Assembly (NCBI GenBank): GCA_963733135.1
Contig: CAVTBX010000005.1
Coordinates: 77,450 to 141,449 of the forward strand
DNA: 64,000 nucleotides
Reading direction: 5' to 3'
Source: an uncultured Actinomycetes bacterium
Lineage (GTDB): Bacteria > Actinomycetota > Thermoleophilia > Gaiellales > Gaiellaceae
The position numbers and the translations under genes are program-made. Below the pieces are notes generated by a model that saw nothing but the letters and a program-made list of their open reading frames with translations, searched no databases and had not been told where the DNA came from. Positions 2,372 through 63,259 of this stretch are shown piece by piece (the stretch's first letter is position 1; each line of letters opens with the position of its first letter).

Positions 2372-2769
2372 CCGGGCGGAGCGTCGGGGTGCCGCGGCAA
2401 GCCGTCGTCCGGGATCTCCTGCCAGGATGCGGCGTAGGCGACGAACTGATGCCACTGCGGACGAATGCCGGGGTCCTCGTCGAGCGTGCCGAGACGAACG
2501 CCCACGAGCTCCTCGGTCCCACCGGGACGGCTGAAGAGCGCCGAGCCGCAGCGGCCGCAGAAGAGCTTCTCGAAGCCGCCCTCCGGCGCCCATACGCGGA
2601 GCTCCTCCTCGCCGGAGAGGACTCGCACCGAGCCGGGCTCAGCCCGCGCGTTCGCCGAGGCGGCCGTTCCACTCCGCCGCTGGCAGCGGGTGCAATGGCA
2701 GTAGGCGGCGGAAACGAACGGGGTCGTGACCTCGTAGCGGATCGCTCCGCACCCGCAGGCGCCGGTCAC
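2368..2769 (-). CDS. GFA-family (glutathione-dependent formaldehyde-activating-like / CENP-V) zinc protein
   Basis: Cys pattern CGCG...CHCTRCQRRSG...CGRCGS is typical of the GFA fold. 4-nt overlaps at both ends. Confidence 0.8.
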   Translation of the reverse strand: MTGACGCGAIRYEVTTPFVSAAYCHCTRCQRRSGTAASANARAEPGSVRVLSGEEELRVWAPEGGFEKLFCGRCGSALFSRPGGTEELVGVRLGTLDEDPGIRPQWHQFVAYAASWQEIPDDGLPRHPDAPPG

Positions 2770-3293
2770 AGGGCGCCGCCGGCGGCCGGCGGTGCGCCGG
2801 CCGGATCACCTTCCCCGCGTGTGGTTCGGGCCAGATGCTCTTCGACGAGCAGCACGCTCGCCCCCTCGGCCCGCTCCACAAGAGCGAGGAGACTCGACAT
2901 GCTCGCGACCTCCTCGCGCTGCTCGTCGAGGAACCAGCCCAGGAACTGCTCGCCGACGAGATCGCCCTCCTCGCGGGCCAGCCGCGCGAGCCCGACGATC
3001 TGCTCGGTCACCTGCCGCTCCTGCTCGAGCGCGAGGCGGACAGGAGAGACGACGTCTCCGAACTCGGCCTGCGGCGCCTCGACGCCGGGGATTCGAACGG
3101 TCTCGCCGGCATCGAGGAGGTACTGGACGATCATCATCGCGTGGTTTCGCTCCTCGAGCGCCTGGCGGTAGAAGTGAGCGGCGAGCTGCGGCAACGTCTC
3201 GGCGTCGTAGTGCACCGCGATCGCGACGTACTGCTGCGAGGCCGCGAACTCCCGCCCGACCTGATCGTTCAGCGCGTCCGGGAAACGAGCCAT
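2766..3293 (-). CDS. Ferritin (non-heme, bacterial type)
   Basis: 175 aa. Ferritin di-iron motifs are present (EFAASQQY, EERNHA, EQERQVTE, EEHL). Confidence 0.88.
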   Translation of the reverse strand: MARFPDALNDQVGREFAASQQYVAIAVHYDAETLPQLAAHFYRQALEERNHAMMIVQYLLDAGETVRIPGVEAPQAEFGDVVSPVRLALEQERQVTEQIVGLARLAREEGDLVGEQFLGWFLDEQREEVASMSSLLALVERAEGASVLLVEEHLARTTRGEGDPAGAPPAAGGAL

Positions 3294-3331: not shown

Positions 3332-3808
3332 CTAGCTCTGTGTGGCTGTCGCCAGAATCTGGCCGACGACTCGCCCCAGATCACGTGCTCCGAAGGGCTT
3401 CTGGAGGAACGCAGCGCCCTCCTCGAGCTCGCCGTCCCGAAGCGCTGCGTCATCCGAGTAGCCGGAGATATAGAGGATGGGTAGGGCCGGCCGGCGCTCG
3501 CGGAGCCTGGCCGCCAGGACGCGCCCGCTCATGTGCGGCATCACCACGTCGGTCACGAGGGCGTCGATGCGTTCCCCGTCGGCGACGCCGAGTGCCTCCA
3601 ACGGATCGGCGGCCACAAGCACGTCGTAGTGCTGCGCGCGAAGCATCTCTGCCGCGAGCTCACGGACGATAAGCTCGTCCTCGACGAGCAGGATCCGCTC
3701 GTTGCCGCCCTCCAGCAATGGGGCGGGCGCTGCGCTCGGAGACGGCGCTGCTGCATCTCGCGGGGGCGAGACGTCGAGAGTGGCGCCGACTCCCGGGTTG
3801 ATCGTCAC
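3332..3808 (-). CDS. Stand-alone response-regulator receiver domain protein (start uncertain; possibly the remnant of a hybrid histidine kinase)
   Basis: The C-terminal ~125 aa form a CheY-like receiver (ILLVEDE...DVVMP...ISGY...KPF). The upstream part of ORF 3332..4087 is low-complexity. The segment INPGVGATLDVSPP resembles the end of an HATPase domain. An in-frame GTG at 3808 was chosen as the start. Confidence 0.55.
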   Translation of the reverse strand: MTINPGVGATLDVSPPRDAAAPSPSAAPAPLLEGGNERILLVEDELIVRELAAEMLRAQHYDVLVAADPLEALGVADGERIDALVTDVVMPHMSGRVLAARLRERRPALPILYISGYSDDAALRDGELEEGAAFLQKPFGARDLGRVVGQILATATQS

Positions 3809-4093
3809 AGGATCGGCTCGCCGCCCTGATCCCTCGTCGCCGAGTTCCCAGGATCGAAGGGTCCCAGCCGGGTCGGCTGTTCCATCGCCACGACTCTGGC
3901 ATCGGCGCTCGCGCCCACGCTCACGAGGACAAGCCGGGGTGGTCGCGCATCCCCGATTCAGCGTAGTCCGGGCGGCCTGTAGGAGGCTCCGTTCGCCAGG
4001 AGGGTTTGGCGAAACAGCCGTTGTGCCGCCCTGGCCGTGCTGCTCGCCTCGAGGCGCACAACCAGACACCGAAGACCGTCTCCCCAAACCCTC

Positions 4094-4402
4094 CTAGTCG
4101 TCGTCTCCCCCGCCGTGACCGGAGTTGTCGCTCCCGGAGCCGCTGTTTCCTCCGTTGTCGTCGGTCGTCGTACCGTCCGTGGTGGTGTCCTCGGTCGTGG
4201 TTTCTTCGGTTGTCCCATCGTCGTCCGTGCCGGTGCGTCCGTCCTCGGTCTCGGTGCTCTCGGAGCCGATCGAGCCGACCGGGCTCAGGTTTCCGACCGG
4301 GTCGTTCCCGGTGCCGCTGGCATCCTCGAGGAGCGACGTGGCCGCGTAGGCCGCGCCGGCGGCGAGCAGACAGGCGGCGATCGTGATCGCTATGACTCGC
4401 AT
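4094..4402 (-). CDS. Small secreted Thr/Asp/Gly-rich protein
   Basis: Internal ATG (MRVIAITIAACLLAAGAAYA signal peptide) within ORF 4094..5008. 102 aa, ending SGHGGGDDD. It lies 10 nt downstream of the ferredoxin reductase stop. Confidence 0.55.
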   Translation of the reverse strand: MRVIAITIAACLLAAGAAYAATSLLEDASGTGNDPVGNLSPVGSIGSESTETEDGRTGTDDDGTTEETTTEDTTTDGTTTDDNGGNSGSGSDNSGHGGGDDD

Positions 4403-4412
4403 CGCGCTCACC

Positions 4413-5549
4413 TTACGCAGCCTCTGCGAGCGCCGAGCTGAGCTCGCGTCGAAGTGCGCCGATCTCGCGTGGGCGGTTGGCGACGAGCGCAGCCAGCGGA
4501 CGACCTGCGGCGTCGAGGTAGCGCACCGTGAACTCGCCGGGCCCGCCGTCGATCTCAACACGATGCCACTCCTCCGCATGGCCGACGTACTGGAGCCGAA
4601 GGCCGAACTGATCCGACCAGAAGTACGGGAGGTCGTCGTACGGCTCCTCCCGACCCAGGATCGCACGAGCCACCGCCGCGGCCTGGCCGGCCGCGCTCGT
4701 CCAGTGCTCGACCCGCAGGCGGCGGCCAAGAGCAGGCCGGTACGCGCTTGCCACGTCGCCGCACGCATAGACGCCCGGGAGCTCGGTCCGCCCGCAGGCG
4801 TCCGTCGGGATCCCGGCCTGCTCTCCGAGGAGCTCTCCCGCGGGCAGCACGCCGATGCCGACCAGGACAGCGGCGCAGTCGATCCGCGCCCCGTCGGCAA
4901 GTACGACCGCGCAGACGCGACCGTCGGGGCCGGCCTCGATCCGCTCGACGCCCGACCCGAGCCGAACATCTGCGCCCCGCCCCCGCCAGTGCTCCGCGAG
5001 AAGCCCACCGACCTCCGGCCCGAGCGCCCGGGTGAAGGGCCTCGGCGCGGCCTCGACGAGCGTCACGTCGACGCCGAGCGAAAGCGCGGTCGACGCGGCC
5101 TCGGCGCCGACGAACCCGGCGCCGATCACGCAGAGGCGCACGCCCGGCTCGAGGTCGGCCCGGAGGGCGTCGGCGTCCGAGCGAGTGCGGAGAACGTGAA
5201 CGCCGTCCGGCTGCTCGCCCGGGAGGCGGCGCGCCCGCGCGCCCGTAGCGATCACCAGGGCGGCCCACGAGACTCCTCCGGCGACGCGGCCGAGGAGGTC
5301 GACGGACTCGATGCGTTCTCCGAGCCTGAGCTCGATTCCCTGCGCGGCCCAGAAGTCGTCCGGCCGAAGGTCGACGCTCTCGCGCGCGCCGGCCAGAAGC
5401 TCCTTCGAGAGCGCCGGACGCTCATAGGGAGCGTGTGGCTCGTCGCCGAAGACCACGATCCGCCCGCCGAAGCCTTCGGCTCGGAGTGTTTCCGCGCAAC
5501 GCGAGCCGGCGAGCCCGGCTCCCACGATGACGACCGTCCCGGGGGTCAC
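4413..5549 (-). CDS. NAD(P)/FAD-dependent ferredoxin reductase (Pyr_redox_2 + reductase C-terminal domain)
   Basis: GTG start (VTPGTVVIVGAGLAGSR). A second dinucleotide motif is present (VIGAGFVGAE). The C-terminus is like putidaredoxin-reductase-type enzymes. GTGA overlap with the ferredoxin stop. Confidence 0.85.
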   Translation of the reverse strand: MTPGTVVIVGAGLAGSRCAETLRAEGFGGRIVVFGDEPHAPYERPALSKELLAGARESVDLRPDDFWAAQGIELRLGERIESVDLLGRVAGGVSWAALVIATGARARRLPGEQPDGVHVLRTRSDADALRADLEPGVRLCVIGAGFVGAEAASTALSLGVDVTLVEAAPRPFTRALGPEVGGLLAEHWRGRGADVRLGSGVERIEAGPDGRVCAVVLADGARIDCAAVLVGIGVLPAGELLGEQAGIPTDACGRTELPGVYACGDVASAYRPALGRRLRVEHWTSAAGQAAAVARAILGREEPYDDLPYFWSDQFGLRLQYVGHAEEWHRVEIDGGPGEFTVRYLDAAGRPLAALVANRPREIGALRRELSSALAEAA

Positions 5550-5761
5550 GCTGCCTGCCTTCCGGTCTCGATCTCGAAGACCGAGATCGCCCCCATCGGG
5601 CAGGAGCCGGCCGCGTCGAGGACGGACTCGTCGTCCGTCTCGCCGACGCGCGTGCCTGCGACGCCCGAACCGTCGAGCTCGAAGATCTCGGGCGCCATGT
5701 CGGCACACGAGCCGAACCCGCTGCAAAGCGAGCGGTCGATCTGGATGCGGTACGTGCTCAT
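5546..5761 (-). CDS. Single-cluster [3Fe-4S]/[4Fe-4S] ferredoxin
   Basis: 71 aa. Contains CSGFGSC...CP, as in actinobacterial P450-type ferredoxins. Confidence 0.85.
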   Translation of the reverse strand: MSTYRIQIDRSLCSGFGSCADMAPEIFELDGSGVAGTRVGETDDESVLDAAGSCPMGAISVFEIETGRQAA

Positions 5762-6318
5762 CGTTCCCCTTTCGGGACGGCGACCCTCGAGGTCGCGATT
5801 GGGAGCGCGCGCCAGGCGGTCGCGAGCGCGACCGCACCGACGGCGCCGAGGTACATGGACATGGCCCAGGGAGCCGCGGAGTCGGTGCCGGCGAAGAGCC
5901 CGTGCGCCGTCGCGGCGGCAAAGATGCCGTAGGTCGCCCAGTGAAGGCGCCGCCAGTTCTTCGGGCCGATGCGCTTCCGGAGCGCGAACGAGACGTAGAC
6001 GAGCAGCATGAGGTTCCCGGCGAGGACGCCGAGCGCCGTCGGGAGGGGCCGGTAGGACGCGAGACCTGGCACGACGAGCGCCGCGAGCGAGATCTCGACG
6101 GTCTCGTCCAGGACGAGGACAACGCCGTGAACGCCGACGAAGGCGAGGCCGAGCAGCGCCAGGAAGCGATGGGCGTCGACGACGGTCGGCTGGCGGAGCG
6201 CCGGCCCGAACGGCTTCGACTTCACGACGAGGCCGGCCACGACCGAGAGCGTCAGGAGCCCGTACGCGGCGATTCCGCTCGCGCGCGCGAGAAACCAGAA
6301 GGTTGGGTCGTGCTTCAT
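5758..6318 (-). CDS. Ferric-reductase-like (MsrQ/FRD-type) transmembrane heme-b protein
   Basis: 186 aa with about 6 TM helices. Conserved His pairs sit in the helices (DAHRF, GVHGV, LHWATY, TAHG). 4-nt overlaps on both sides. Confidence 0.72.
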   Translation of the reverse strand: MKHDPTFWFLARASGIAAYGLLTLSVVAGLVVKSKPFGPALRQPTVVDAHRFLALLGLAFVGVHGVVLVLDETVEISLAALVVPGLASYRPLPTALGVLAGNLMLLVYVSFALRKRIGPKNWRRLHWATYGIFAAATAHGLFAGTDSAAPWAMSMYLGAVGAVALATAWRALPIATSRVAVPKGER

Positions 6319-7160
6319 GCGAGCGCTCCCGTTCTCGTCACCGAGCCGTCAAGCCCGACGAGGATCGCGTCGCGGCCGCCAGACTCGGCGCCCAGGAAGA
6401 CGTCCTTCGCGGCCACCTCGGCGGCGACGGCGCTCGGCGCAGCGACCGTCACGCGAAGCCAGGGCGAGGTCGCCGGCCGACCCGTCGTGGGGTCGATGAG
6501 ATGGTGTCGCTCCTCCCCGTTTCGCACCCAGCGGCGCTTGTCCCGGCCCGAGGTGGCGAGGCCGCCGCCTGTGAGGCCGACCGTCAGAGGCCGCCCGGGC
6601 GTTTCCACCGAGACGGCCCACACGCCCGCCCTCGGTACGCCTGCGACAGCGACATCGCCGCCTGCGTTCACCAGGCAGGGGCCAAGGCCGGCCAAGCCCA
6701 CGACGGCGGTGTCGACGGCGTACCCCTTGCCGATCCCACCGAGATCGATCCGAACGCCGGGCCCGAGCACGACCGAGTCGCCGTCGACGCGAACCTCGGA
6801 GGCGGCCAAGTAGCAGTCTGTTACTTGGCCGGGGGCCTCCTCGGGGGACAGGTTCTCGAATGTCCGGTCGTAGCCCGCGGCGATGAGGGCGTCGTGGATC
6901 GTCGGGTCGAAGCGGCCGCAGGTCGCGTTCCTCGCCTCGAGCGCGAGCGCGACGACGTGGGCGAGCTCGGGCCGGCCCTCGATCCGACCCTCGCGGTTGA
7001 GCCGCGAGAGCGCGGAATCCGGCCGGAAGCGGGAAAGGCTGCCCTCGAGGCGCTCGAACTCGGCCTCGACCGCAAGCAGCGCCGCAGGAGCCTCGTGGTC
7101 GTCGGACTCGAGGAGCGCCTCGACGGTCGTCCCCATGGCCGGAAAGACGTGGCGCAGCAT
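6315..7160 (-). CDS. apbE: FAD:protein FMN transferase (ApbE family)
   Basis: Internal ATG (MLRHVFPAMGTTVE), the canonical ApbE N-terminus. DLGGIGKGYAVD motif present. RHHLIDPTTG present near the C-terminus. Confidence 0.85.
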   Translation of the reverse strand: MLRHVFPAMGTTVEALLESDDHEAPAALLAVEAEFERLEGSLSRFRPDSALSRLNREGRIEGRPELAHVVALALEARNATCGRFDPTIHDALIAAGYDRTFENLSPEEAPGQVTDCYLAASEVRVDGDSVVLGPGVRIDLGGIGKGYAVDTAVVGLAGLGPCLVNAGGDVAVAGVPRAGVWAVSVETPGRPLTVGLTGGGLATSGRDKRRWVRNGEERHHLIDPTTGRPATSPWLRVTVAAPSAVAAEVAAKDVFLGAESGGRDAILVGLDGSVTRTGALA

Positions 7161-7516
7161 CACGAGCTCCCCGAGGACGTGACGGGCGGCAGGGACGTCA
7201 CCTGCGCCGCGGGCGCCGAAGCAGGCGCCGCGGCGGGCGGAGCTGCGGCAGCGGGGGGAGCTGCGCCGAGTGCCGCGTGAACCCGCTGCTGGTCGGAGAA
7301 CTCTCGCCTGTAGGCGGCGAAGCGTCGCTCCACCAGGCGATTCACTCTCTCCTGCTCGCGCCCGAGCCTTGTCTCGCGCTTCTGGAGCGCAAGCAGCCTC
7401 GGATCCGTTGACGGCGCTGCCTTCGGGAAGGGATTCGCCGCCACGACCGCCCACGACATGAGGAAGACGAGGCAGCCCAGCGCGAGTGCGTAGAGCCTGG
7501 CGACGTGGTCAGTCAT
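7160..7516 (-). CDS. Membrane-anchored hypothetical protein (coiled-coil region, Ala/Pro-rich region, C-terminal SSGSS)
   Basis: ATG at 7516 (MTDHVARLYALALGCLVFLMSWAVV is a TM anchor). Overlaps the upstream gene by 8 nt and apbE by 1 nt. Confidence 0.5.
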   Translation of the reverse strand: MTDHVARLYALALGCLVFLMSWAVVAANPFPKAAPSTDPRLLALQKRETRLGREQERVNRLVERRFAAYRREFSDQQRVHAALGAAPPAAAAPPAAAPASAPAAQVTSLPPVTSSGSS

Positions 7517-7991
7517 CGTCCTCGGAGTCGTCGAGAGCGTCCTCACGGGCGTCCGCAAGATCGTCGGCGCGGTCCTCGGCGGCATCCGCGGCATCGTCTT
7601 CGCGGTCGTCGTCGTGGTCGTCGAAGTCGTCGTGACCGTGGTCGTCGTCGAAGTCGTGGCCGCTGCTCACCGAGCCGGGACCAGAGCTCGAGACGAGCTG
7701 CGGGCCCGGTCCGGGGCCGGAGGAGATCGAGCCTCCCGGGCTGCCAGAAGCGCCCGACGACGCCGGAACTGCGAGCGCGGACAGCTTCGGAGGCCGCTTG
7801 CGGGCCTGAGTGCGAATCCGCTTTGAGATCCGGTCTAGCTGTCTGTCACGAGTCTGGATCTGTGCGTCCGAGACCTCCGTGGCGCTTGACGCGGACGCGC
7901 CGAGCTCGGTCGTCCGCACCGCGGCGAACACACCCGCGACGAGCGCGAGGGCGACCACGAGCGAGATGAGTAGCGCGTGCTTTCGAGCCAT
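7509..7991 (-). CDS. Membrane-anchored/secreted protein with a Ser/Gly-rich linker and a strongly acidic His/Asp tail
   Basis: N-terminal TM/signal segment (LLISLVVALALVAGVFAAV). The tail reads HDFDDDHGHDDFDDHDDDREDD... An AAGGAGG RBS lies upstream of the ATG at 7991. Confidence 0.55.
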   Translation of the reverse strand: MARKHALLISLVVALALVAGVFAAVRTTELGASASSATEVSDAQIQTRDRQLDRISKRIRTQARKRPPKLSALAVPASSGASGSPGGSISSGPGPGPQLVSSSGPGSVSSGHDFDDDHGHDDFDDHDDDREDDAADAAEDRADDLADAREDALDDSEDDD

Positions 7992-8133
7992 GCGTGCCTC
8001 CTTGTCGGTCTGCTACGACCGTAGGAGCCGCCACCTGAACGGCGGGCTCACGGAAGGCAAAGACCTCCCCAAGCCCAGGCAAAGGTTCGGAAGCCAGGCC
8101 GCTCGCGGTCTCGCGGCGTGCCACCATGCGGCC

Positions 8134-8790
8134 GTGAGGCTCCTGATCGTCGAGGATGAGGATGCGATCGCAGAGCCGCTCGCCGAAGGTCTGCGGCGCG
8201 AGGGGTTCGACGTCACGCGGGTTGCGACCGGCGAGGAGGCGCTCGCGGCCGCGGAGCCCGATCTCGTGCTTCTCGACCTGCGGCTGCCCGACATCGACGG
8301 GTTCACGGTCTGCCGCGAGCTCCGCGCCCGGTCGGACGTGCCTATCATCGTCGTGACCGCGAAAGGTGAGGAGATCGACCGCGTCGTCGGGCTCGAGCTC
8401 GGGGCGGACGACTACGTCGTGAAGCCGTTCGGTCTCCGTGAGCTGATCGCCCGCATCCGCGCCGTCACGCGTCGGACCGGCAGGCGCGAGGACGCTCCTG
8501 TCTCGGTGACCGTCGGCGAGCTCGAGGTCGACTCGCGGGCGCGCCGGGTTTCGGTCGCCGGCGAGGAGATCGCGCTCACCGCCAAGGAGTTCGACCTCCT
8601 TGCTCTCCTCGCGCAGGAGCCGGGCGCGGTTCTGAGTCGTCAGCGGATCCTTGAGGAGGTCTGGCAGACGACCTGGTACGGATCTGGCAAGACGATCGAC
8701 GTCCATGTGGCCTCCCTCCGCAAGAAGCTAGGCGACCCGGGCTGGATCGAGACCGTCCGCGGCGTCGGCCTGCGGCTTCGCGACGCGTGA
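8134..8790 (+). CDS. OmpR/PhoB-family response regulator
   Basis: GTG start (VRLLIVEDE). A receiver domain is followed by a winged-helix output domain (TAKEFDLLALLA...GVGLRL). Confidence 0.9.
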   Translation: MRLLIVEDEDAIAEPLAEGLRREGFDVTRVATGEEALAAAEPDLVLLDLRLPDIDGFTVCRELRARSDVPIIVVTAKGEEIDRVVGLELGADDYVVKPFGLRELIARIRAVTRRTGRREDAPVSVTVGELEVDSRARRVSVAGEEIALTAKEFDLLALLAQEPGAVLSRQRILEEVWQTTWYGSGKTIDVHVASLRKKLGDPGWIETVRGVGLRLRDA

Positions 8791-10160
8791 CCCGGCGACT
8801 ACTGTTCGGCTATCTCGGGCTGACCGTGCTCGTCCTGGCCGTGCTCGAGGTTCCGCTGGCAATCACGCAGGCCAGAACGGCCAGGGCCGATCTCACGGCC
8901 AAGGTGGAGCGCGACGCGGTCGCCCTCGGGTCACTGGCACAGGAGGCGGTGCGCGTGCGCGACGCCGAGGCGCTCGACCGGGTCCGGGAGATCGCCGAGG
9001 AGTACGCAGCGGACACCGGCGGGAGGGTGGTCGTCACCGGAGCCCGAGGTACCTCACTCGTCGACAGCTCGGATGCCTTCGAGCTCGGACGTGACTTCTC
9101 GACGCGGCCGGAGGTTCAGGCTGCCCTCGCCGGAACGGTCGTCAGCGGCATCCGCGAGTCGGAGACCCTAGGCACGCGCCTTCTCTACGTCGCGGTTCCC
9201 GTCGCCTCGGGCGGCGTGGTCGACGGCGCGGTGCGGATTACTTACCCGACCTCCGAGCTCGACGAGCGTGTGCGCCGCTACCGGCTCACCTTGCTCGCGA
9301 TCGCGGGAATCGTCCTCCTCGCCGCAGCGGGGATCGGCGTCCTTCTCGCCCGTTCCGTCACCGGCCCGCTACGCCGTGTGGAGTCAACGGCTGCCGAGTT
9401 CGGCCGAGGCAACCTGAGCGCGCGCGCTCCGGTCGGCGGCCCACCCGAGGTGCGTGAGCTCGCGCACTCGTTCAACGACACCGCGGCCAAGCTCGAGAGC
9501 CTGCTGCACTCCCAGGAGCAGTTCGTGGCCGACGCCTCTCACGAGCTTCGGACGCCTCTGACGGCGCTCCGGCTCAGGCTCGAGAATCTCGAGCGAGATG
9601 TCCAGCCTGCCGGCCGCGGCGACCTCGAGGCCGCGATCGACGAGGCGGAGCGCCTGAACCGCATGGTGCAGGACCTGCTCGCCCTGGCCCGCGCGGACGC
9701 GACGGAGGCGCCTGCGGAGCCCGTCGATCTCGGCGAGCTCGCCCGCAGCCGTGCGGAGGCGTGGGAGGCCTACGCAGCCGAGCGAGGAGTCACAGTGGTC
9801 GCCGAGTCTGCGGGCAGACCGGTTGCCCGGGCCGGCCGCGGACGGGTCGAGCAGATCGTGGACAACCTGCTCTCCAACGCCCTCGAGGTCTCTCCCCGCG
9901 GGCGCCGGGTTCGGCTCGTCGCCGAAGCCCGCAGAGATACGGCGGTCATTCGGGTGATCGACGAAGGGCCGGGCATGACGGCCGACGAGCGCAGTCGGGC
10001 ATTCGACCGGTTCTGGCGCGGGCGCCAGGACGGGGCGGGCTCGGGGCTCGGTCTTGCCATCGTGAAACGCCTCGTCGAGGCCGACGACGGGGCCGTGGAG
10101 CTCTCCGAAGCCGAGAGCGGCGGCATCGACGCCGTCGTTACTCTCCGCACTGCCCGCTAA
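8787..10160 (+). CDS. Sensor histidine kinase (2 TM, HAMP, HisKA, HATPase_c)
   Basis: H-box SHELRTPL, N-box LLSNALEV, G-boxes DEGPGM and GSGLGLAIV. 4-nt overlap with the regulator. Confidence 0.9.
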   Translation: MTRRLLFGYLGLTVLVLAVLEVPLAITQARTARADLTAKVERDAVALGSLAQEAVRVRDAEALDRVREIAEEYAADTGGRVVVTGARGTSLVDSSDAFELGRDFSTRPEVQAALAGTVVSGIRESETLGTRLLYVAVPVASGGVVDGAVRITYPTSELDERVRRYRLTLLAIAGIVLLAAAGIGVLLARSVTGPLRRVESTAAEFGRGNLSARAPVGGPPEVRELAHSFNDTAAKLESLLHSQEQFVADASHELRTPLTALRLRLENLERDVQPAGRGDLEAAIDEAERLNRMVQDLLALARADATEAPAEPVDLGELARSRAEAWEAYAAERGVTVVAESAGRPVARAGRGRVEQIVDNLLSNALEVSPRGRRVRLVAEARRDTAVIRVIDEGPGMTADERSRAFDRFWRGRQDGAGSGLGLAIVKRLVEADDGAVELSEAESGGIDAVVTLRTAR

Positions 10161-11482: not shown

Positions 11483-12697
11483 TTACGAGCCGCCGATCAG
11501 CGTGAGCAGCTTGAACATCGGCAGGTACATGCTGATGATGATCACCCCGACCATCAGGCCGACTCCGATCATCATCAGGGGCTCGATCACCGACGTCAGG
11601 GTCGCGATCGCGCTGTCGACCTCGTCCTCGTAGAAGTCGGCGATCTTCCCGAGCATCTTCTCGAGCTCACCGGTCTCCTCGCCGACTCGCACCATCTGCG
11701 AGACCATCGGCGGGAAGATCGGATCCTCGGTGAGCGGCACGGCGATAGGCACGCCCTGGTGCACCTTCTCCCGCACCTCCGCGACGGCGTCCTCGATGAG
11801 GCTGTTGCCTGACGTGGAGCCCGTGATCTCGAGGGCTCGGATGATGTCGACGCCCGAGCCGACGAGGGTCGAGAGCGTCCGCGAGAAGCGCGCCATGCCG
11901 ATCTTCAGGATCGTCGCGCCGATCGAGACCGGCAGCTTCATCCGGAAGCGATCCCAATGGCGCCGGCCTTGCTCGGTCTTCTTGTAGCGGAAGAAGCCCC
12001 AGATCACGAGCGCGATGCCCGGGAAGAGGATGTAGTACTGGTGGCGCACGATGTTCGACGCCTTCAGGACGTACTGCGTGAGCGTCGGCAGGTCGCCGCC
12101 GAGCTGCGAGAAGATCCCGACGAAGACCGGGACCAGGAACATCAGCATCCCGATCAGGACGAGGGTCGCGAAGAGCAGGACCATCGCCGGGTACATCATC
12201 GCGCCCTTGACGCGGCGCTTGATCTTCGTCTCCTTCTCGATCTGGAGCGCGACGCGGTCGAGCACGACGTCGAGGATTCCCGCTGCCTCGCCGGCCTCCA
12301 CCATGGCGATGTAGAGCCGGGAGAAGATGCGGGGGTGGCGTGCAAGCGCCTCGGAGAGAAGCAGGCCGCCCTCGACGTCGGCGCGCACCTCGGAGATGAC
12401 GGACGCGAACTTCTTGTCCTCGGTCTGCTCCTCCAGGATCACGAGCGCGGTCACGACGTTCAGGCCCGCCTCGATCATCGTCGCGAACTGGCGCGAGAAG
12501 ATCTGGAGCGACTTCGGCTTGACCTTCTTGACCGCGGCTCCGATTCCCTGCGAGCTCGACGCGCGCTGCGTCAGGTCGAGCGCGAGCAGCCCGCGCACAC
12601 GCAGGGCTTCGCGCGCCGAGTTCTCGTCGGGCGCGTTGACCTCGCCAGAGAGCTCGAGGCCCTCCGCGTTGATGGCGCTGTAGGCGAACGAAGCCAT
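11483..12697 (-). CDS. pilC: Type IV pilus platform protein PilC (GspF family)
   Basis: ATG at 12697 (MASFAYSAINAEG). Two T2SSF repeats and 3 TM segments. 404 aa. Confidence 0.9.
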   Translation of the reverse strand: MASFAYSAINAEGLELSGEVNAPDENSAREALRVRGLLALDLTQRASSSQGIGAAVKKVKPKSLQIFSRQFATMIEAGLNVVTALVILEEQTEDKKFASVISEVRADVEGGLLLSEALARHPRIFSRLYIAMVEAGEAAGILDVVLDRVALQIEKETKIKRRVKGAMMYPAMVLLFATLVLIGMLMFLVPVFVGIFSQLGGDLPTLTQYVLKASNIVRHQYYILFPGIALVIWGFFRYKKTEQGRRHWDRFRMKLPVSIGATILKIGMARFSRTLSTLVGSGVDIIRALEITGSTSGNSLIEDAVAEVREKVHQGVPIAVPLTEDPIFPPMVSQMVRVGEETGELEKMLGKIADFYEDEVDSAIATLTSVIEPLMMIGVGLMVGVIIISMYLPMFKLLTLIGGS

Positions 12698-12707
12698 CCA
12701 GCCAGGC

Positions 12708-12735
12708 AGATCGGCATCCCCCGCCTGCGGCTTGA
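12708..12735 (-). promoter_or_regulatory. Sigma-28 (FliA/SigD/WhiG)-type promoter of pilC
   Basis: Minus strand reads TCAAG-N15-GCCGATCT, then 10 nt to the ATG. Confidence 0.65.
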
Positions 12736-12759
12736 GGGCGAACGGACGCCTGCCGATGA
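12732..12759 (+). promoter_or_regulatory. Sigma-28-type promoter of the divergent minor pilin gene
   Basis: TTGAG-N15-GCCGATGA, then 8 nt to in-frame GTG 12768. Its -35 overlaps the pilC -35 within the hexamer CTTGAG (12731-12736). Confidence 0.55.
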
Positions 12760-12767
12760 AAGAACCG

Positions 12768-13530
12768 GTGTTCACGCGGCGTCTACGTGCGGTCCGGGCC
12801 GCCTCGCCAGAGGCCGGCTTCGGCATGATGGAGCTTCTGATCGCGGTCTCGATCCTGTCGATCGGGATTCTCGCGGTCTTCACGCTCATGAACTCCGGGA
12901 TGGTGCAGATCCAGCGCGCCGCCTCGATCTCGACGGCCGCGGCGCTCGCCGAGGTCGCGGATGGAGAACTTCCGCGCGGTGAAGTTCACCGCCATCGGGC
13001 TCGCGGACACGGAAGTCGCGACCGCGGACGCGACCTACGCCGCCGACAGCGCCTACCGCACGGACACGCCGACGACGACTGCGTCGACGGCTCTCACGAG
13101 CAGCGGCACGAGCCTGACGGTGGCGAGCACGGCCGGCTTTCCGGCCGCGGCGCCCTTCCGGGTCTCGATCGACAGCGAGGTCCTCCAGGTCGTGGCCGTC
13201 AGCGGCACGACGTGGACAGTCTCCCGCGGTCAGGACTACACGGTTGCGGCTGCCCATTCGGCAAGCGCGACGGTCGCCCTCAAGCAACGCGTTCACCTGC
13301 CGGTGTGTGGCACCTCCCCGTGCACGAACTGGCACCCGACGGAAACCGTGACAGGAGCCGACGACCGCAGCTACCGGGTCGACACGTACGTCACGTGGCA
13401 GCTCACTCAGAACTCGGCTGGCACGACCGGGCGAAACGCCAAGCGCGTCACGATCGTCGTTCGAAACGCGACGACCATGCAGGTCTTCGCTCGGGCGACC
13501 TCGACGTTCGACGAGGCCACAGGGCTCTAG
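12768..13530 (+). pseudogene. PilV-like minor (pseudo)pilin interrupted by a +1 frameshift near 12950-12962
   Basis: The prepilin N-terminus (PEAG/FGMMELLIAVSILSIGILAV) is in frame 3 (ORF 12732..). The body (MENFRAVKF...) is in frame 1 (ORF 12961..13530). Frame 1 has a TGA at 12889. Deleting one G in GTCGCGGATGG restores the reading ...AAALAEVAMENFRAVKF... Confidence 0.6.
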
Positions 13531-51938: not shown

Positions 51939-52655
51939 CTACGGAGCGCCGAGCCAGGTGGTCGTGCTGGTTCCGACGTTGGCGTGGTAGACGGTGACCG
52001 GTTGCGGGGAGGTGCCCGCATACTCTTCGATCCCGACCCGCAGGTAGCGCGGATTGCCCGTCGTCGCGCCCGAGAGGCCCGTCAGCGTGATCTTGTCGAC
52101 GCCGTTCACACGCACGACCACTGAGTCGTTTCGAAGCGCCGACACCTCGACCCGAACCGCCGTGCCGTTGTTCGGCACCGTCGTGGCCGTCGACTGGTCG
52201 ATCGCAGCCGCCCCCAAGCCTCCCGCCGGGCTCTTCAGCCGCAGCAGCCGCGCCTGGTTCAGGAACAGCTCGTACACGACCTTGTTGTTCACATCCACGA
52301 CCTCGAACACGAACAGCTGACCCGCCAACGTCTGCCCCGGCTCGAACCGGAACACCGTCCGCGTGAACAAGCGCCCAGACACACCGGCCGGGCCGCCCAC
52401 ATCATCGATCGCCAACGCCGTGTCCACCTCGCTCGGCGCGCCCTGAATCGTCGCCTTCAGCTCAGGATCGTTCCAGACCAGCTGACAGCCACCACAACCC
52501 GCATCCGTCGTGAATGACTCATACGGGCCCATCCCGCCCCCGCCACCCGTGGGCGGAGTCGTCACGCTCACCCCAGCCGACTGCGCCGACTCATTCCCCG
52601 ACGTATCAACCGACGACACCTTGTACCACGACGTCGAATTGGCAGGCGCGCCGAC
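51939..52655 (-). pseudogene. Out-of-frame C-terminal module of the giant surface protein
   Basis: ORF 51939..52619 and its upstream extension (PANSTSWYKVSSVDTSGNESAQSAGVSVTTPPTGGGGGMGPYESF...) are a near copy of the preceding in-frame module. Two indels at 52641-52686 separate it from the main ORF. Confidence 0.65.
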
Positions 52656-54378
52656 GAGTCCGTGTACTGAGACGCAGACAACGCGGCCCGTTCAGCTTCG
52701 TATACGTCCCGCTCTGCGTCGCCGAGCGGAACACGTTGTACCCAGCCAGATCCGTCGCCGACACGTCACTCCAGTTCAGATCCACCGACGTCGAGCTCGT
52801 CGCAGTCCCAGCCAGACCGGCCGGAACACCAGGCGGAGTCGTATCCGTTGGAGCCGGCGTCGTCACACTCGCCGCAGTCGACTGCGTCGACTCATTCCCC
52901 GTCGTATCAACCGACGAGACCTTGTACCACGACGTCGCGTTCGCCGGGGCGCTCGAATCCGTGAACTGAGACGCAGACACCAGCGGGCCGTTCAGCTTCG
53001 TATACGTCCCGCTCTCAGTCGCCGACCGGAACACGTTGTACCCGGCCAGATCCGACGCCGACACATCGTTCCAGTTCAGGTTGACCGTCGTCGGGCCGCC
53101 CGCGCTCCCGCTCAGGCCGGCCGGAACACCAGGCGGAGTCGTGTCGGACCCACCGCCACCGGGAGCTCCGAGCCAGTCGGTTGTGCTGAACCCGACGTGG
53201 GCGTGGTAGACGGTGACCGGCTGGGCCGCGCTGCCGGCGAGCTCGTTGATCCCGACCCGCAGGTAGCGCGGGTTGCCGGTCGTCCCACCTGTGAGACCCG
53301 TCAGGTTCACCTTGTCGACGCCGTCCACGCGCACCACGACCGACGAGTTGCGGAGCGCCGACACTTCGATTCTGACCGCGTTGCCGTTGTTCGGCACCGT
53401 GACGCCCGTCGACTCGTTGATTGCGGTCGTCCGCAGACCGCCGGCCGGGCTGCTCAACCGAAGTACACGGTTCTGATTCAGGAATAGCTCATAGACGACC
53501 TTGCCGGTGACGTCGACGACCTCGAACACGAAGAGCTGACCGGTCAACGTCTGCCCGGGCTCGAACCGGAACATCGTGCGGGTGAAGATGCGGCCGGGAA
53601 GGCCTGTCGCGCCGCCGACATCGTCCGTAGCAAAGGCATCGTCGACGTTGCTGGAACCTCCCGCCACCGTCGCCTTCAGTTCGGGGTCGTTCCAAACGAG
53701 CTGGCAGCCACCGCAACCCGCATCGGTCGTGAACGACTCATACGGGCCCATCCCGCCCCCGCCACCCGTGGGCGGCGTCGTCACGCTCACCGCAGCCGAC
53801 TGGGCCGACTCGTTCCCGGTCGTATCGACGGAAGAGACCTTGTACCAAGAGGTAGTTCCTGCCGGGGCGGTCGCGTCCGTGTACTGCGACGGCGAGACCA
53901 GCGGCCCATTCAGCTTCGAATACGTGCCACCCTCAGTCGCCGAGCGGAACACGTTGTACCCAGCCAGATCAGCCGCCGACACGTCATTCCAGTTCAAATT
54001 CACCGTCGTCGGACCCGCCGCCGTCCCCGTCAAACCAGACGGCACGCCAGGCGGCGTCGTATCCGACGGAGCCGGCGTGGTGACGCTCGTCGCAGCCGAC
54101 TGCGCCGACTCATTCCCGGTCGTGTCGACCGACGAGACCTTGTACCACGACGTCGCGTTCGCAGGAGCGCTCGAGTCCGCGTACTGCGACGCAGACACCA
54201 GCGGCCCATTCACCTTCGTGTACGTGCCGTTCTGAGTCGCCGAGCGGTACACGTTGTACCCGGCCAGATCCGCCGCCGAGACATCGTTCCAGTTCAAATT
54301 CACCGTCGTCGGGCCACCAGCACTTCCGGTCAGACCAGACGGAACGCCAGGCGGGGTCGTGTCGGAGCCACCCGAGCT
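51939..54378 (-). repeat. Tandem duplication (~1.2 kb unit) of an FN3-FN3-beta-sandwich module at the 3' end of the giant gene
   Basis: Copy 1 is about 53166-54378 and copy 2 about 51939-53165. The encoded ~400-aa units are collinear and highly similar (SDTTPPGVP...WYKVSSVDTTGNES...GGGGGMGPYESFTTDAGCGGCQLVWNDPELKAT...). Confidence 0.85.
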
Positions 54379-57300
54379 CTCGGGGCGGAGGTTCTTGACG
54401 ATGTAGACGTTGTCGTTGTAGTCGTAGTTGATGCTGTCGCTGTCCATCGTCAGCAGGTACTGGTTCGGGATGATCACGCCGCTTCGGTTCTTCAAGGGCC
54501 AGAAGCGGACGTGATGGCCGCAGGGCTCGACGCAGCCCTTGGAGATGTCCACCGAGTGATCGTTGAGCGCAGGGTCGCTCCATTCGTCCTGGATCTCGAA
54601 GCCGAACGCTCCCGACGGGTTGAACGAAGCCGACGTCGTAGGTGCGCCTACGCCGAGCGGCAACACGCTCTGGCGATAGATACCGCGATGAGTCGCAAGG
54701 TTTGTGTTCCCCGAGACATTGCCCTTCGGCCACCAGGCGACCGTGGCCTGGCCGCCGCCGTGGTAGGCCGCGATCTGCCGCACGGTGACCGGTTGCGTGT
54801 TGTCCACCCGCACCCAGTACGGGGAGAGAACCTCGTCGCCGATCGCCTCGAGCCGGCCCTCGTTCGCGAGCTGCTGGCCCGGCCCGACGATGACGGTCTG
54901 GTAGCCGAACACATCCATGATCTCGACGAGGTCGGGCTCCTGCCCGCCCTCCGAGACGCTCTGCCAGAACCCTGAGAGCTCGACGACCTTCGACCCTTCG
55001 TCGGTGTCATTCGTCTCGATCGTGAGCGAGCCGTCGATGACGTTGCCGCTCTCGGCGATAAAGCGCACGTTCAGGGTCACCCCGGCGCCTGGCGCGAGGT
55101 TGAGCGGGAGCGTCGGAGGCGTGTCGAGCTGCCACGGACCGACGATGTTGAGCGCAGCGATCTGGAGCGTTTGCGTACCGACGTTGTTGACCCTGAGCTT
55201 GACGAGATCATGTACCGCGACCTCAGTCGGCGGAGCTGCCAGCGATCCGATCCGGTTGAACACGAGGCGATCGGCGAACGGCTCGCCGTCCTGGTTCACC
55301 AGGTCGATCTCGGCGCCGCTCGGCGGCGGGGTGACGACGCTGAAGCTCTGTTGCGCGGTCGTCGTCACGTTGCCGGCGCCGTCGATCGCGCGCGCGCGAA
55401 TCGTGTGCGAGCCCACGGAGGTGACGTCGAACGGCCCTGTGTAGTTCTGGTACGGGGAGCCGTCCAGGCTGTAGGCGGTGGTCGCGAGGCCGGAGCCGCC
55501 TTCGTCTGCGGCCGTGATCGTCACGGTCGCCTTGTTCTTGTAGACGCCAGGCGTGTCGCTCAGCCCGCTCAGCTGTACCGAGGCCGTCGGATTGGTCGTG
55601 TCCGGCCCGGTCGAGGTACCGGAGATGTCGACGTAGTTCAGCTTCGTGTTCGTGCCGCCGTTTGCGTCGACGGTCAGCCTGCCGTCCGCGACGGCGACGG
55701 TCACGGTCGCGCTCGCAAAGAGGTTCGAGGTCGTCGGCACGAAGTTGTTGATGGCGTTCACGCCCTCGACGTTGACCCGGTGGGTCGAATCCGTGAAGCC
55801 CGCGTCACCGACGCTCAAGGTGACCTGGTAGCTGCCGTTCGGCAGTGCGTATTCCCACGCGCCCTGGTTCCCGTTGGTTGCGCCCTGCATGAGGATCAGC
55901 GTGTCGAGCCGCTGATCGGTCACGAGGTTCCGCTCGCGGGTCGCGCTGGACATGTCCTTCGGCGTCGAGGTGCCCGGGGTGACCCAGCCGAAGCCGCGGG
56001 TCGCGTCGAAGCCGAGGCCGGCGTCCTTGGTGTAGCCGGCCGGAACGGTCGCTCCGTCGGTCTGGAAGTTGATCTTCGCCACGTTCCCGCTGAGGCCGCT
56101 GGCCGGCATGACGTTCGAGACCACGAAGACCGTGTCTTGGTAGTCGCTTCCGGCCGCTTCCTCGAAAGCGACGACGTACGTGTCCTCGATCGGCTGCCCG
56201 GCGCGGTTCTCGGCCGGGTACACGCGCACGGCGTGCGCGACCGGGCCGGTGTTGAGGCCGTCCTGCGTGAGGGTCTTCCGACCCGTCGCCGCGCTGTCGA
56301 CGTAGAGACCGAACGTCTGGGTTCCAGGGTCGAAGCTCGTCGAGCCGCCCGAAAGCGTCGGGTTCAGCGTGAAGTGCTGGCCAGCCGCGATCGTGGCGCG
56401 CTGCGTGAAGGTCGGGTCGGCGCCGCCGAGGGTGTACGACCCGAACGGCAGTGCCTCGTTGACCGAGTAGCGCGCAACCGGCTTGATCGTGACCGTTCCC
56501 GCTCCCGCCTTCTGGAAGAGCTGCGCGCGAACCTCGTCGCCGATCGGTGTCGCCCCGTTCCCGAGGACGAGACCGGTTCCGCCGACGTCGACCGGATGGC
56601 CGACCGTATCCACGATCTGCTTCAGAGGGGGCTCGTCGCCGGCGCCCTGCGCGTTCGTCGACAGGCCGAAGAGGCCCACGTCGAGGGTTCCCTCGTCGGC
56701 GTCGTTCGAGACGAGTCGGAGGGCGGCGGCAAGGGAGCCTGTGACCGCCGCCCCCGGTGCGAATGCAATGTTGAACGTCGCAGTCTCGGCAGGATCGAGA
56801 TCGACGGGAGGTGTCGGCCCCGTGTTCGTGAATGCGCCCGCGTTCGCTCCGGTGAGCGTCGAGCTCGAGATCGAGAGCGGCTCGTTGCCGACGTTCGTGA
56901 CGACGACACTCTGGGTCGGGCTCGTCGTGCCCTTGGCCGTGCTGAAGACGAGCTCACCAGGGGCGGCTGAGATCTCCGGCCCGTCCGCCTGCGCAGTCGC
57001 AGGCTTCACGTTCCGCGCAATGAAGACCACGTCCTGATAGTCGAAGCCGGCCGTGTGCTCCTCGGTCGCGACCACGTAGGCGTTCGGCACCGTGCCGCCG
57101 CCCGCGCTCTTCAACGGGTAGACGCGAACCTTGTGGCGATTCGCCGCCGTCGGCTCCCAGGTGTTGAACGTGTCCTGACCGAAGACGTCGCGGTCGGAGA
57201 AGAACGGCCAGGTGGAATAGAAGCTGAACGTGGTGGAGCCCGGATCGAAGGCGAGCGTGCCGGTCGTCGCCGGAGCAAGCGCCTGCGAGCCGGTGTTCGG

Positions 57301-63117: not shown

Positions 63118-63259
63118 AGACTCCCCACAAGCCTTGTAGCACGTCTTTCGAGAAAGTGCCAGTCCTTGACATCTCCGCTTGGCTTCGAACTGGTGACCGA
63201 ATAGAGGCCACAGCACGCAGCGGATCAGTGGAGCTGAGAGGACTTCCTCCCGCCCCTTT

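Follow-up and report, generated by a model that had tools for sequence, protein, structure and literature searches.

Membrane cytochromes of the PF01794 type are encoded beside apbE in the 'MsrQ-like' flavinylation-associated gene clusters (Meheust et al. 2021, eLife, PMC8238504; Huang et al. 2024, mSystems, PMC11334425). These clusters are concentrated in Actinobacteria and were proposed to pass electrons out of the cytosol to the cell exterior, with iron reduction as a suggested function. Here we describe an operon that likewise places a gene for such a cytochrome, a ferric-reductase-domain (FRD) protein, beside apbE. It occupies positions 4094-7991 of a 64-kb stretch of DNA (hereafter the window; contig CAVTBX010000005.1, assembly GCA_963733135.1) from an uncultured member of the Gaiellaceae. 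The described clusters typically include a gene for an FMN-binding domain, whereas the operon has none. They usually have an NAD-binding domain on the cytochrome or a NuoF-like gene, whereas the operon encodes a separate three-Cys ferredoxin (Fd) and a ferredoxin-NAD(P)+ reductase (FdR). Finally, by their definition ApbE, FMN-bind, DUF3570 or DUF2271 must carry a signal peptide or a lipidation site (PMC8238504). The ApbE of the operon is signal-less, FMN-bind, DUF3570 and DUF2271 are absent, and three small proteins with tails are present instead.

Escherichia coli MsrPQ with Fre, a 'two-component NOX-like system', resembles the operon in that its membrane protein consists of an FRD alone and receives electrons from a separate cytosolic reductase, and in that a divergent pair of OmpR-family regulator and sensor histidine kinase (HK), HprSR, adjoins the genes. 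The donor is Fre in E. coli and would be Fd and FdR in the operon. Moreover, MsrQ lacks one His and holds one haem plus an FMN in the inner site (PMC12525009), whereas the FRD protein of the operon keeps four His. No MsrP molybdoenzyme was found among the Pfam-scanned neighbours in the window or the recurrent neighbour families sampled in 79 related loci; the rest of the window was not profile-searched. With NOX, SpNOX and the yeast FRE proteins, the operon protein shares a di-haem FRD core with a 13- and 12-residue spacing of its His pairs, the predicted fold and, as proposed here, NAD(P)H as ultimate donor. Those proteins have six helices and a fused FAD/NADPH dehydrogenase, whereas the operon protein is unfused and has five helices, and its electron input would be divided between FdR, Fd and, possibly, the protein of the ApbE family. 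A signal-less, cytoplasmic ApbE is known from Klebsiella pneumoniae, where it flavinylates a soluble fumarate reductase (via PMC12052999). Unlike the operon protein, it has a substrate with a canonical FMN-binding domain and motif, and it has no membrane cytochrome partner.

We propose that the operon specifies a transmembrane electron-transfer module, particular to its lineage, with a minimal di-haem FRD protein at its centre; to this reading we give an even chance. Nearly all genomes carrying the cluster belong to the Gaiellales/Thermoleophilia, soil Actinomycetota of which the majority are uncultured, and the operon occurs in hundreds of these genomes and in thousands of metagenomic protein clusters. 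As the survey definition demands a signal peptide on ApbE or its substrate, the operon would go uncounted. A literature search found no paper describing this architecture, and the part of the supplementary-table text of PMC8238504 that was searched contains neither Gaiella, Thermoleophilia nor related names. The operon differs from the described 'MsrQ-like' clusters in three usual features; its signal-less ApbE, with a Glu/Lys metal site and no recognisable client, could be the more novel element. The system bears on whether ApbE can act without its canonical motif or in a non-transferase role, on how a di-haem FRD protein is reduced without a fused dehydrogenase domain, and on the role of His- and acid-rich extracytoplasmic tails beside a ferric-reductase-type cytochrome.

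Gene organization and the FRD protein

Seven consecutive minus-strand open reading frames (ORFs) fill the interval; they and their junctions were read from the sequence.

g1, 7509-7991, minus strand: 160 aa, N-terminal transmembrane (TM) segment and acidic/His tail; no Pfam or NCBIfam match
g2, 7160-7516, minus strand: 118 aa, N-terminal TM segment; no Pfam or NCBIfam match
ApbE, 6315-7160, minus strand: 281 aa, PF02424 at 164 bits (cut-off 25.6) over residues 9-259
FRD protein, 5758-6318, minus strand: 186 aa, PF01794 at 29 bits (cut-off 28), a marginal match
Fd, 5546-5761, minus strand: 71 aa, Fer4_15/Fer4_13
FdR, 4413-5549, minus strand: 378 aa, GTG start, Pyr_redox_2, Pyr_redox and Reductase_C
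g7, 4094-4402, minus strand: 102 aa, signal-peptide-like N-terminus, Thr/Asp-rich; no Pfam or NCBIfam match

From g1 to FdR, successive frames overlap by 8 (ATGACTGA), 1, 4, 4 and 4 nt, the first of the 4-nt overlaps being that of ApbE with FRD, and a 10-nt gap precedes g7. The G+C content of the window is approximately 70%. The seven gene identities, the minus-strand order and the junction lengths had been given in a first-pass annotation made from the sequence alone, and Pfam searches and direct reading of the sequence agreed with it throughout.

The FRD protein comprises a TM core without a fused FAD/NAD(P)H dehydrogenase domain. Its homologues carry precomputed PF01794 assignments, and a profile search against PDB sequences gave no match. 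Four His residues, H50, H64, H126 and H139, are invariant in 28 family members (alignment A1) and 95-98% conserved in 150 representatives obtained by clustering at 50%. They form two pairs on two TM helices, H50/H64 and H126/H139, with spacings of 13 and 12 residues. The AlphaFold2 (AF2) model has five TM helices (pLDDT 83, pTM 0.76), and its top Foldseek matches in the PDB were DUOX1, the NOX5 TM domain, SpNOX and STEAP1/2, with probabilities of 0.98-1.0, TM scores of approximately 0.5-0.6 and weak E-values (0.02-0.3). We assigned His50 and His126 to the inner haem and His64 and His139 to the outer haem. In MsrQ and STEAP, one His ligand is missing and a flavin occupies the inner site (PMC12525009). 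Since all four His are invariant here, the sequences classify the protein as a minimal, five-helix di-haem FRD of the NOX type and not of the MsrQ/STEAP type. The first-pass annotation had described a ferric-reductase/MsrQ-like di-haem membrane protein: the two haems are consistent with the conserved ligands and the predicted NOX/STEAP-like fold, whereas the likeness to MsrQ does not hold.

Based on loop charges (positive-inside rule) and natural fusions, the predicted topology of the FRD protein is N-out, C-in. In P0266, P0268, P0280, P0284 and P0343, a signal peptide and an acidic/His stretch are fused to the FRD N-terminus, sometimes together with a beta-rich domain. In P0247, one TM helix and a g7-like tail with the end HEGEHEGAGDDD come after the FRD. 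In L087, a relative from outside the Actinomycetota described below, the FRD protein has an extra N-terminal helix preceded by basic residues. We considered whether g2 might supply the missing first helix of a six-TM FRD protein, and rejected this since L087 has both a g2-like gene and the extra N-terminal helix.

Conservation of the ApbE-FRD unit

A pattern scan restricted to one genome per species detected FRD relatives in 376 species-level genomes, and a large protein collection contained 2514 relatives at E <= 0.001. Among the matches listed, those named to organism were Gaiellaceae. An exact-sequence look-up returned no record for the window FRD sequence. The best 80 loci were examined by mapping the window proteins and diverse family members onto them. 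These loci are from metagenome-assembled genomes (MAGs) of Gaiellales/Thermoleophilia, save two whose labels look mis-binned. The gene order of the operon recurs in 79 other genomes at protein identities of 25-93%, and features were counted over these 79 loci.

g1 and g2 adjacent: 77/79 loci
g2 directly before FRD or ApbE-FRD: at least 74/79 loci
ApbE gene in the locus: 77/79 loci
Fd directly after an FRD gene: 63/79 loci
Fd-FdR pair: 56/79 loci
Fd alone: 7/79 loci
no Fd: 16/79 loci
g7: at least 45/79 loci
divergent two-component pair: at least 42/79 loci

Thus, the combination of ApbE, FRD TM protein, Fd and FdR, whose conservation the first-pass annotation had proposed to check, does recur; its core is ApbE-FRD with g1 and g2. 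In eight loci, g2 stands directly upstream of FRD without the ApbE of the main cluster (ApbE1), and two loci contain no ApbE within 7 kb.

Frameshifts in several loci from long-read MAGs (P0148, P0165, P0275, L005 and L085) create apparent gene fusions and fragments, and apparent fusions therefore need care in this G+C-rich, low-complexity region. The apparent g1-g2 fusions P0148 and P0165 were discarded as long-read indel artefacts, as their acidic tail runs out of frame as an Arg-rich stretch. P0275, an 889-aa ApbE-FRD-FdR protein, also looks chimeric.

At least 14-16 loci carry a second triad, small2-ApbE2-FRD2, within a few kb of the main cluster. The small2 protein is a 70-74-aa single-pass protein that ends in H-A-T-T-x-T-S. 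ApbE2 is also signal-less.

L047, 9419-11165: second triad
L056, 8113-9814: second triad
L023, L026, L065, L067, L070, L072, L074, L077, L078, L080, L081 and L084: second triad also present

ApbE also lies directly upstream of an FRD gene in relatives from Thermomicrobiales and related metagenome contigs (Chloroflexota-related; L085-L087). In L086 and L087 their reading frames overlap. ApbE-FRD has an OmpR/HK pair beside it in L085 and L087, and the short L086 contig has none. L087 further carries a g1-like gene and a g2-like gene, the product of the latter reading ...VATLPPLQPLPS...RTGGS*; the pair in L085 has no small protein. Retention of ApbE-FRD both in these loci and in the paralogous triad identifies it as the invariant unit.

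These data bear on whether the linkage is partly incidental, with ApbE serving canonical FMN-binding proteins encoded elsewhere and Fd-FdR serving unrelated oxygenases. Such an explanation would account for the lack of a recognisable substrate in the cluster and for the 16 loci without Fd-FdR. Nevertheless, ApbE and FRD stay adjacent, with overlapping frames, even where identity is 25-60%, and they do so in the paralogous copy and in a second phylum as well. Fd-FdR tracks an FRD gene even after rearrangement, and only one of 84 loci contains a P450 signature. We give incidental linkage hardly any credence.

The ApbE-family protein

The window ApbE matches ApbE/Ftp structures in the PDB at E-values of 1e-21 to 1e-8. 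In all 72 loci where the N-terminus is readable, it begins M-x-R-R-x-F-R-A-M-G-T. The M-G-T that opens the ApbE fold already occupies residues 9-11, too close to the start for a signal peptide or lipobox to fit. Indeed, neither was found in these 72 loci or in the L087 relative; the L086 gene is cut by the contig end. By sequence, the protein is thus cytoplasmic, and flavinylation of an exported acceptor does not follow directly. A Tat signal was also considered, because of the R-R-x-F in the N-terminus, and rejected: no hydrophobic region follows, and the window ApbE does not conserve the RR pair. The M-R-R of small2 was dismissed as a Tat signal as well, its RR pair not being conserved. Nor are g2 and ApbE the halves of one frameshifted, membrane-anchored ApbE. 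Their junction varies between loci (1-nt overlap, 4-nt overlap, gaps of 6-30 nt), and ApbE has its own start wherever the N-terminus is readable.

[quoted passage not shown] A Phe occupies the position of E. coli Tyr60, the aromatic residue that stacks on FAD and whose loss turns E. coli Ftp into a pyrophosphatase (PMC4767422). The first metal site is altered. Its ligands, Asp284/Thr288 in Treponema pallidum and Asp297/Thr301 in Pseudomonas stutzeri, were described as completely conserved (PMC5655446) and correspond to D280/T284 in E. coli (PMC4767422). The site reads Glu...Lys in 63 of the 74 cluster ApbEs, the window protein among them, as it does in L086 and L087. In ApbE2 it is Glu...Thr, so that the Thr ligand is kept, unlike in ApbE1. 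On these sequence features, the protein belongs to a distinct subfamily that is cytoplasmic and has no recognisable client.

One explanation of this combination is that ApbE is not a transferase at all but a stable cytoplasmic FAD subunit docked on the FRD protein. Standing in for the dehydrogenase domain of NOX, it would pass electrons received from Fd or a different donor on to the inner haem. The strict coupling of ApbE to FRD across two phyla without a substrate domain, the missing signal peptide and the replacement of the metal ligands Thr by Lys and Asp by Glu are all compatible with such a subunit. The aromatic position is kept as Phe, its loss being what makes E. coli Ftp a pyrophosphatase (PMC4767422), and the isoalloxazine ring of ApbE-bound FAD is solvent-exposed (PMC12052999). 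However, the catalytic His is invariant (although it is conserved family-wide too), ApbE2 retains the Thr ligand, and a redox role of ApbE-bound FAD would be without precedent. We consider such a non-transferase FAD subunit distinctly unlikely.

The small proteins and a possible exported flavin

The g1 protein contains a TM segment, an Arg-rich helix with R-P-P-x-L-P, a low-complexity linker and a His/Asp/Glu/Gly tail ending DD. Most members also hold the segment V-x-Y-V-R-P-A-P-I-V-V-V-K-H (alignment A4). The sequence predicts a single-pass protein with N-in/C-out topology. The g7 protein, which is predicted to be exported or anchored, has an N-D-P-V-G-K-L-[ST]-P motif, found in other loci as well, and an acidic/His tail that also ends DD. 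Tails akin to those of g1 and g7 are fused to the FRD protein in the relatives described above, which places the g1 and g7 tails outside the cell and links them in function to the outer face of the FRD protein.

The g2 protein starts with an invariant stretch (M-T-x-H..R-L-Y), continues through a TM helix, a long basic helix and an Ala/Pro linker of approximately 15-150 residues, and closes with a conserved C-terminal peptide, V-R-V-V-T-L-P-P-[LV]-T-x-T-[RKG]-[TS]-S* (VTSLPPVTSSGSS* in the window; alignments A2 and A3). In its AF2 model, helices span residues 2-27 and 39-84 and the tail is disordered. More than 1073 homologues were found, every one annotated as 'hypothetical' and without a Pfam family. 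A profile comparison of g1 with g2 gave 57% probability (E = 1e-4), and the two may be distant paralogues that share the N-in/C-out topology. None of g1, g2, g7 or small2 matched FMN_bind or any other Pfam family, even at E = 10. An S-G-A-S in the window g1 was considered as a flavinylation site and rejected, as it is not conserved in g1 homologues.

In one sub-clade (L018, L025, L032, L035, L036, L057, L063 and L064), g2 is 240-250 aa long with a very long Ala/Pro linker, and g1 ends in a Cys-containing helical segment (..EQQCR..ERQCEALKQAAE..) with no acidic/His tail. These loci have no Fd-FdR, and genes identified by eye as SufBD-like adjoin the cluster in L018.

The main rival to our proposal for ApbE is the canonical-style account, which is also closest to that of the first-pass annotation. 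In it, ApbE flavinylates the exported g2 (..T-x-T-[RK]-[TS]-S) or small2 (H-A-T-T-x-T-S), and the FMN outside takes electrons from the outer haem in place of the missing FMN-binding domain. A small single-pass protein does lie directly upstream of the signal-less ApbE in both triads, with overlaps of 1-4 nt, and ApbE1 pairs with g2 as ApbE2 does with small2. The Thr/Ser-rich ends of the two proteins resemble the stretch of the flavinylation motif past the modified Thr (motif: PMC12052999), as seen by aligning S-G-A-T-L-T-S with P-L-T-I-T-R-T-S of g2 and H-A-T-T-Q-T-S of small2. The g2 peptide is on a disordered tail behind a variable linker, and flavin tags work best at protein termini (PMC12052999), a preference that the terminal position of both peptides fits. 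Conversely, ApbE has no signal peptide in any member with a readable N-terminus, so that the tail would have to be modified in the cytoplasm before translocation or ApbE exported by a non-classical route. The peptides have no [ST]-G-A-[ST] core, and several members have Val in place of the first Thr in the g2 motif. Moreover, g2 stands upstream of FRD in the eight loci without ApbE1, two loci have no ApbE within 7 kb, and L085 has the ApbE-FRD pair without a small protein. We consider an exported flavin unlikely.

Ferredoxin and its reductase

Fd aligns to the single-cluster 4Fe-4S Fd of Thermotoga maritima, with the second Cys replaced by Phe (C-x2-F-x2-C...C-P). Of 66 family members, 62 share this Phe and 61 have exactly three Cys, a pattern that points to a [3Fe-4S]-type cluster. 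PDB matches (6tuk, 3lxd, BphA4, TodA and PdR) and Pfam domains group FdR, a ferredoxin-NAD(P)+ reductase, with the enzymes of the putidaredoxin-reductase/BphA4 type. Use of NADH is suggested by a Glu at the end of the second strand in its NAD fold (VTLVE).

This type of reductase is shared with the Fd-FdR pairs of class I P450s and Rieske dioxygenases, and the small single-cluster Fd resembles those fused to or paired with actinobacterial P450s. Here, however, the pair follows the FRD gene, and a P450 haem-binding signature is absent from the 64-kb window and from 83 of 84 related loci. The observation in the first-pass annotation that no P450 partner is present thus extends to the family; P450 signatures were scanned, and no search was aimed at Rieske-type oxygenases. 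In rearranged loci, Fd-FdR stands behind FRD2, from which we conclude that the pair tracks FRD genes. At 56-63 of the 79 loci, Fd-FdR is a frequent accessory and not part of the core.

Proposed mechanism

In the proposed module, electrons would pass from NADH to the FAD of FdR and on to the [3Fe-4S] Fd, and where Fd-FdR is present they would enter the FRD protein at its cytoplasmic face. The inner haem (His50/His126) would then hand them to the outer haem (His64/His139), from which they would exit to an extracytoplasmic acceptor. The His/Asp/Glu-rich tails of g1 and g7, outside the membrane by the FRD protein, would most plausibly hold the acceptor metal ion, for example Fe(III) or Cu(II). We guess at a metal (Fe or Cu) from the composition of the tails and by analogy with FRE/STEAP activity. 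The g2 protein would act as a conserved single-pass partner of the FRD protein. ApbE would supply the cytoplasmic flavin function, either by installing covalent FMN on a non-canonical cytoplasmic site or by serving as an FAD-bearing partner. We infer the direction of electron flow, the target or role of ApbE and the identity of the acceptor.

In every characterized FRD protein, electrons arrive from a flavin on the cytoplasmic side, which is FAD in NOX and STEAP and FMN in MsrQ (PMC12525009). As FRD proteins need such a flavin and ApbE, whose gene shows translational coupling to FRD in each lineage, is the only flavin handler universally coupled to the FRD gene, this role was given to ApbE. 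Specifically, we suggest that the signal-less Glu...Lys ApbE subfamily of the Gaiellales and the Chloroflexota-related loci is a dedicated cytoplasmic flavin module of the di-haem FRD protein. It would either attach FMN to g2, small2 or the FRD protein at a site without [ST]-G-A-[ST] or itself constitute the FAD subunit, forming with FdR and the 3Fe-4S Fd a NOX-like oxidoreductase of at least four separate proteins. This suggestion is tentative, and we put its chances at clearly below even. If true, it would define a new class of ApbE client or function.

Several observations weigh against these proposals. No cluster protein contains an FMN-binding, DUF2271 or similar domain according to Pfam, and the flavinylation motif D-x-x-[ST]-G-A-[ST] occurs in no genuine ORF of the window; the first-pass annotation had likewise recognised no extracytosolic FMN-binding domain. 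With Lys in the place of the Thr ligand, transferase activity could be altered or lost. If g2 shares the topology of g1, the best-conserved Thr/Ser motifs, those that end g2 and small2, probably lie outside the membrane and hence on the wrong side of it for a cytoplasmic ApbE. The FRD protein offers no family-specific conserved cytoplasmic Ser/Thr. The only conserved one is S110, which we take to be a general FRD feature, and it was therefore set aside as a family-specific site. An N-terminal A-R-A-S-G-L-T in the FRD protein was rejected as a mimic of the flavinylation motif because its Thr is not conserved. Fd is missing from 16 of 79 loci and from the Chloroflexota relatives, so that Fd-FdR is not obligatory, and metal binding by the g1 and g7 tails is a guess from composition. 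Finally, the first-pass annotation had taken the neighbouring ferritin gene as one hint of metal (for example iron) reduction or uptake, or of envelope redox repair. This linkage is not conserved: ferritin adjoins the cluster only in the two closest relatives, L004 and L005, and carries no weight for a function in iron metabolism.

The first-pass annotation had read the operon as a split NOX-like chain ending in an exported, flavinylated or metal-binding acceptor. Our analysis supports the chain in part; the exported flavinylated acceptor is not supported, given the signal-less ApbE.

Regulation and neighbouring genes

The upstream flank of the operon contains a divergent OmpR-type regulator and HK, and the downstream flank a REC-domain gene, a ferritin gene and a GFA-family gene.

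OmpR-family response regulator, 8134-8790, plus strand: likely start GTG at 8134 (M-R-L-L-I-V-E-D-E)
HK, 8787-10160, plus strand: divergent, upstream of g1; cognate sensor of the OmpR regulator
REC-domain ORF, 3332-4087, minus strand: starts 6 nt past the g7 stop
ferritin, 2766-3293, minus strand: the REC-domain gene lies between it and the operon

Where orthologues of the OmpR regulator adjoin the cluster, they are 70-81% identical, and the HK is co-conserved. The NCBIfam matches of the regulator (CreB, MtrA, CseB and HprR) and of the HK (CreC and the heavy-metal sensor kinase family) were all sub-threshold.

The divergent promoter region contains a direct repeat, two copies of AGGCAAAG at 8055-8084, 64-93 nt upstream of the g1 ATG. 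On the operon strand it reads CTTTGCCT-N14-CTTTGCCT, 22 nt from start to start. The pattern CYTT[AG]CC-N13-16-CYT[TC][AG]CC was found upstream of g1 in 27 of 64 loci, compared with 0.1 expected from shuffles, and the repeat is also present in loci without an adjacent two-component system. It has the pattern expected of an OmpR-family binding site and is a candidate for one; the divergent OmpR/HK pair would probably control expression of the operon through it. The adjacency of the OmpR/HK pair, from which the first-pass annotation had drawn hints of function, proved to be a conserved trait (at least 42 of 79 loci) accompanied by a conserved repeat in the shared promoter region. In addition, a -10-like TACGGT and a strong AAGGAGG ribosome-binding site precede g1. 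Scans for consensus sigma-70 promoters and terminators gave no match, a negative that is uninformative for this organism.

By analogy with E. coli HprSR-MsrPQ, the operon might instead encode an envelope-stress or redox-repair device, in which the FRD protein feeds an extracytoplasmic reductase or repair enzyme encoded elsewhere and the acidic tails are structural. In E. coli, the genes for the HprSR two-component system lie next to those for MsrPQ (hprRS-msrPQ). The conserved divergent OmpR/HK pair, the sub-threshold matches of its members to heavy-metal and HprR families, and an HtrA-like protease between the two-component system and the module in L087 are in keeping with such a device. However, no MsrP-like or other extracytoplasmic reductase occurs among the recurrent neighbours, and the FRD protein is di-haem, unlike MsrQ (PMC12525009). 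We judge a repair device very unlikely. The protease gene (Trypsin and PDZ domains; L087 4007-5260), which is followed by the g1-like, g2-like, ApbE and FRD genes, hints at an envelope-stress regulon in that organism.

The REC-domain ORF at 3332-4087 may be co-transcribed with the operon. Its REC domain is at the C-terminus, after approximately 120 low-complexity residues, and a homologue occupies the same position only in the closest relative, L005. Across the related loci, ribBA and ribH, named by eye from translations, recur 5-7 kb downstream of the cluster in 22-25 loci (L006-L055 and others). They sit in a housekeeping block that also holds rpmB, DAK2/YloV and DegV genes, with rsmD and coaD upstream. 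This recurrence may reflect plain synteny or a link to flavin supply.

Further from the operon, the plus strand at 97-2371 carries a molybdate-transporter-like operon (modA fragment, modB and a modC-like ATPase gene; named by eye), after which come the GFA and ferritin genes on the opposite strand. A GspF/PilC-like membrane protein is encoded at 11483-12889 on the minus strand, with prepilin-like plus-strand ORFs after it (by eye). Together, these genes suggest a type IV pilus or type II secretion locus at 11483-13530, a few kb from the HK gene. Finally, the minus strand holds a giant 3536-aa ORF at 52606-63216. Its product, a secreted multi-domain protein whose C-terminus carries repeated FN3-like modules, appears unrelated to the operon.

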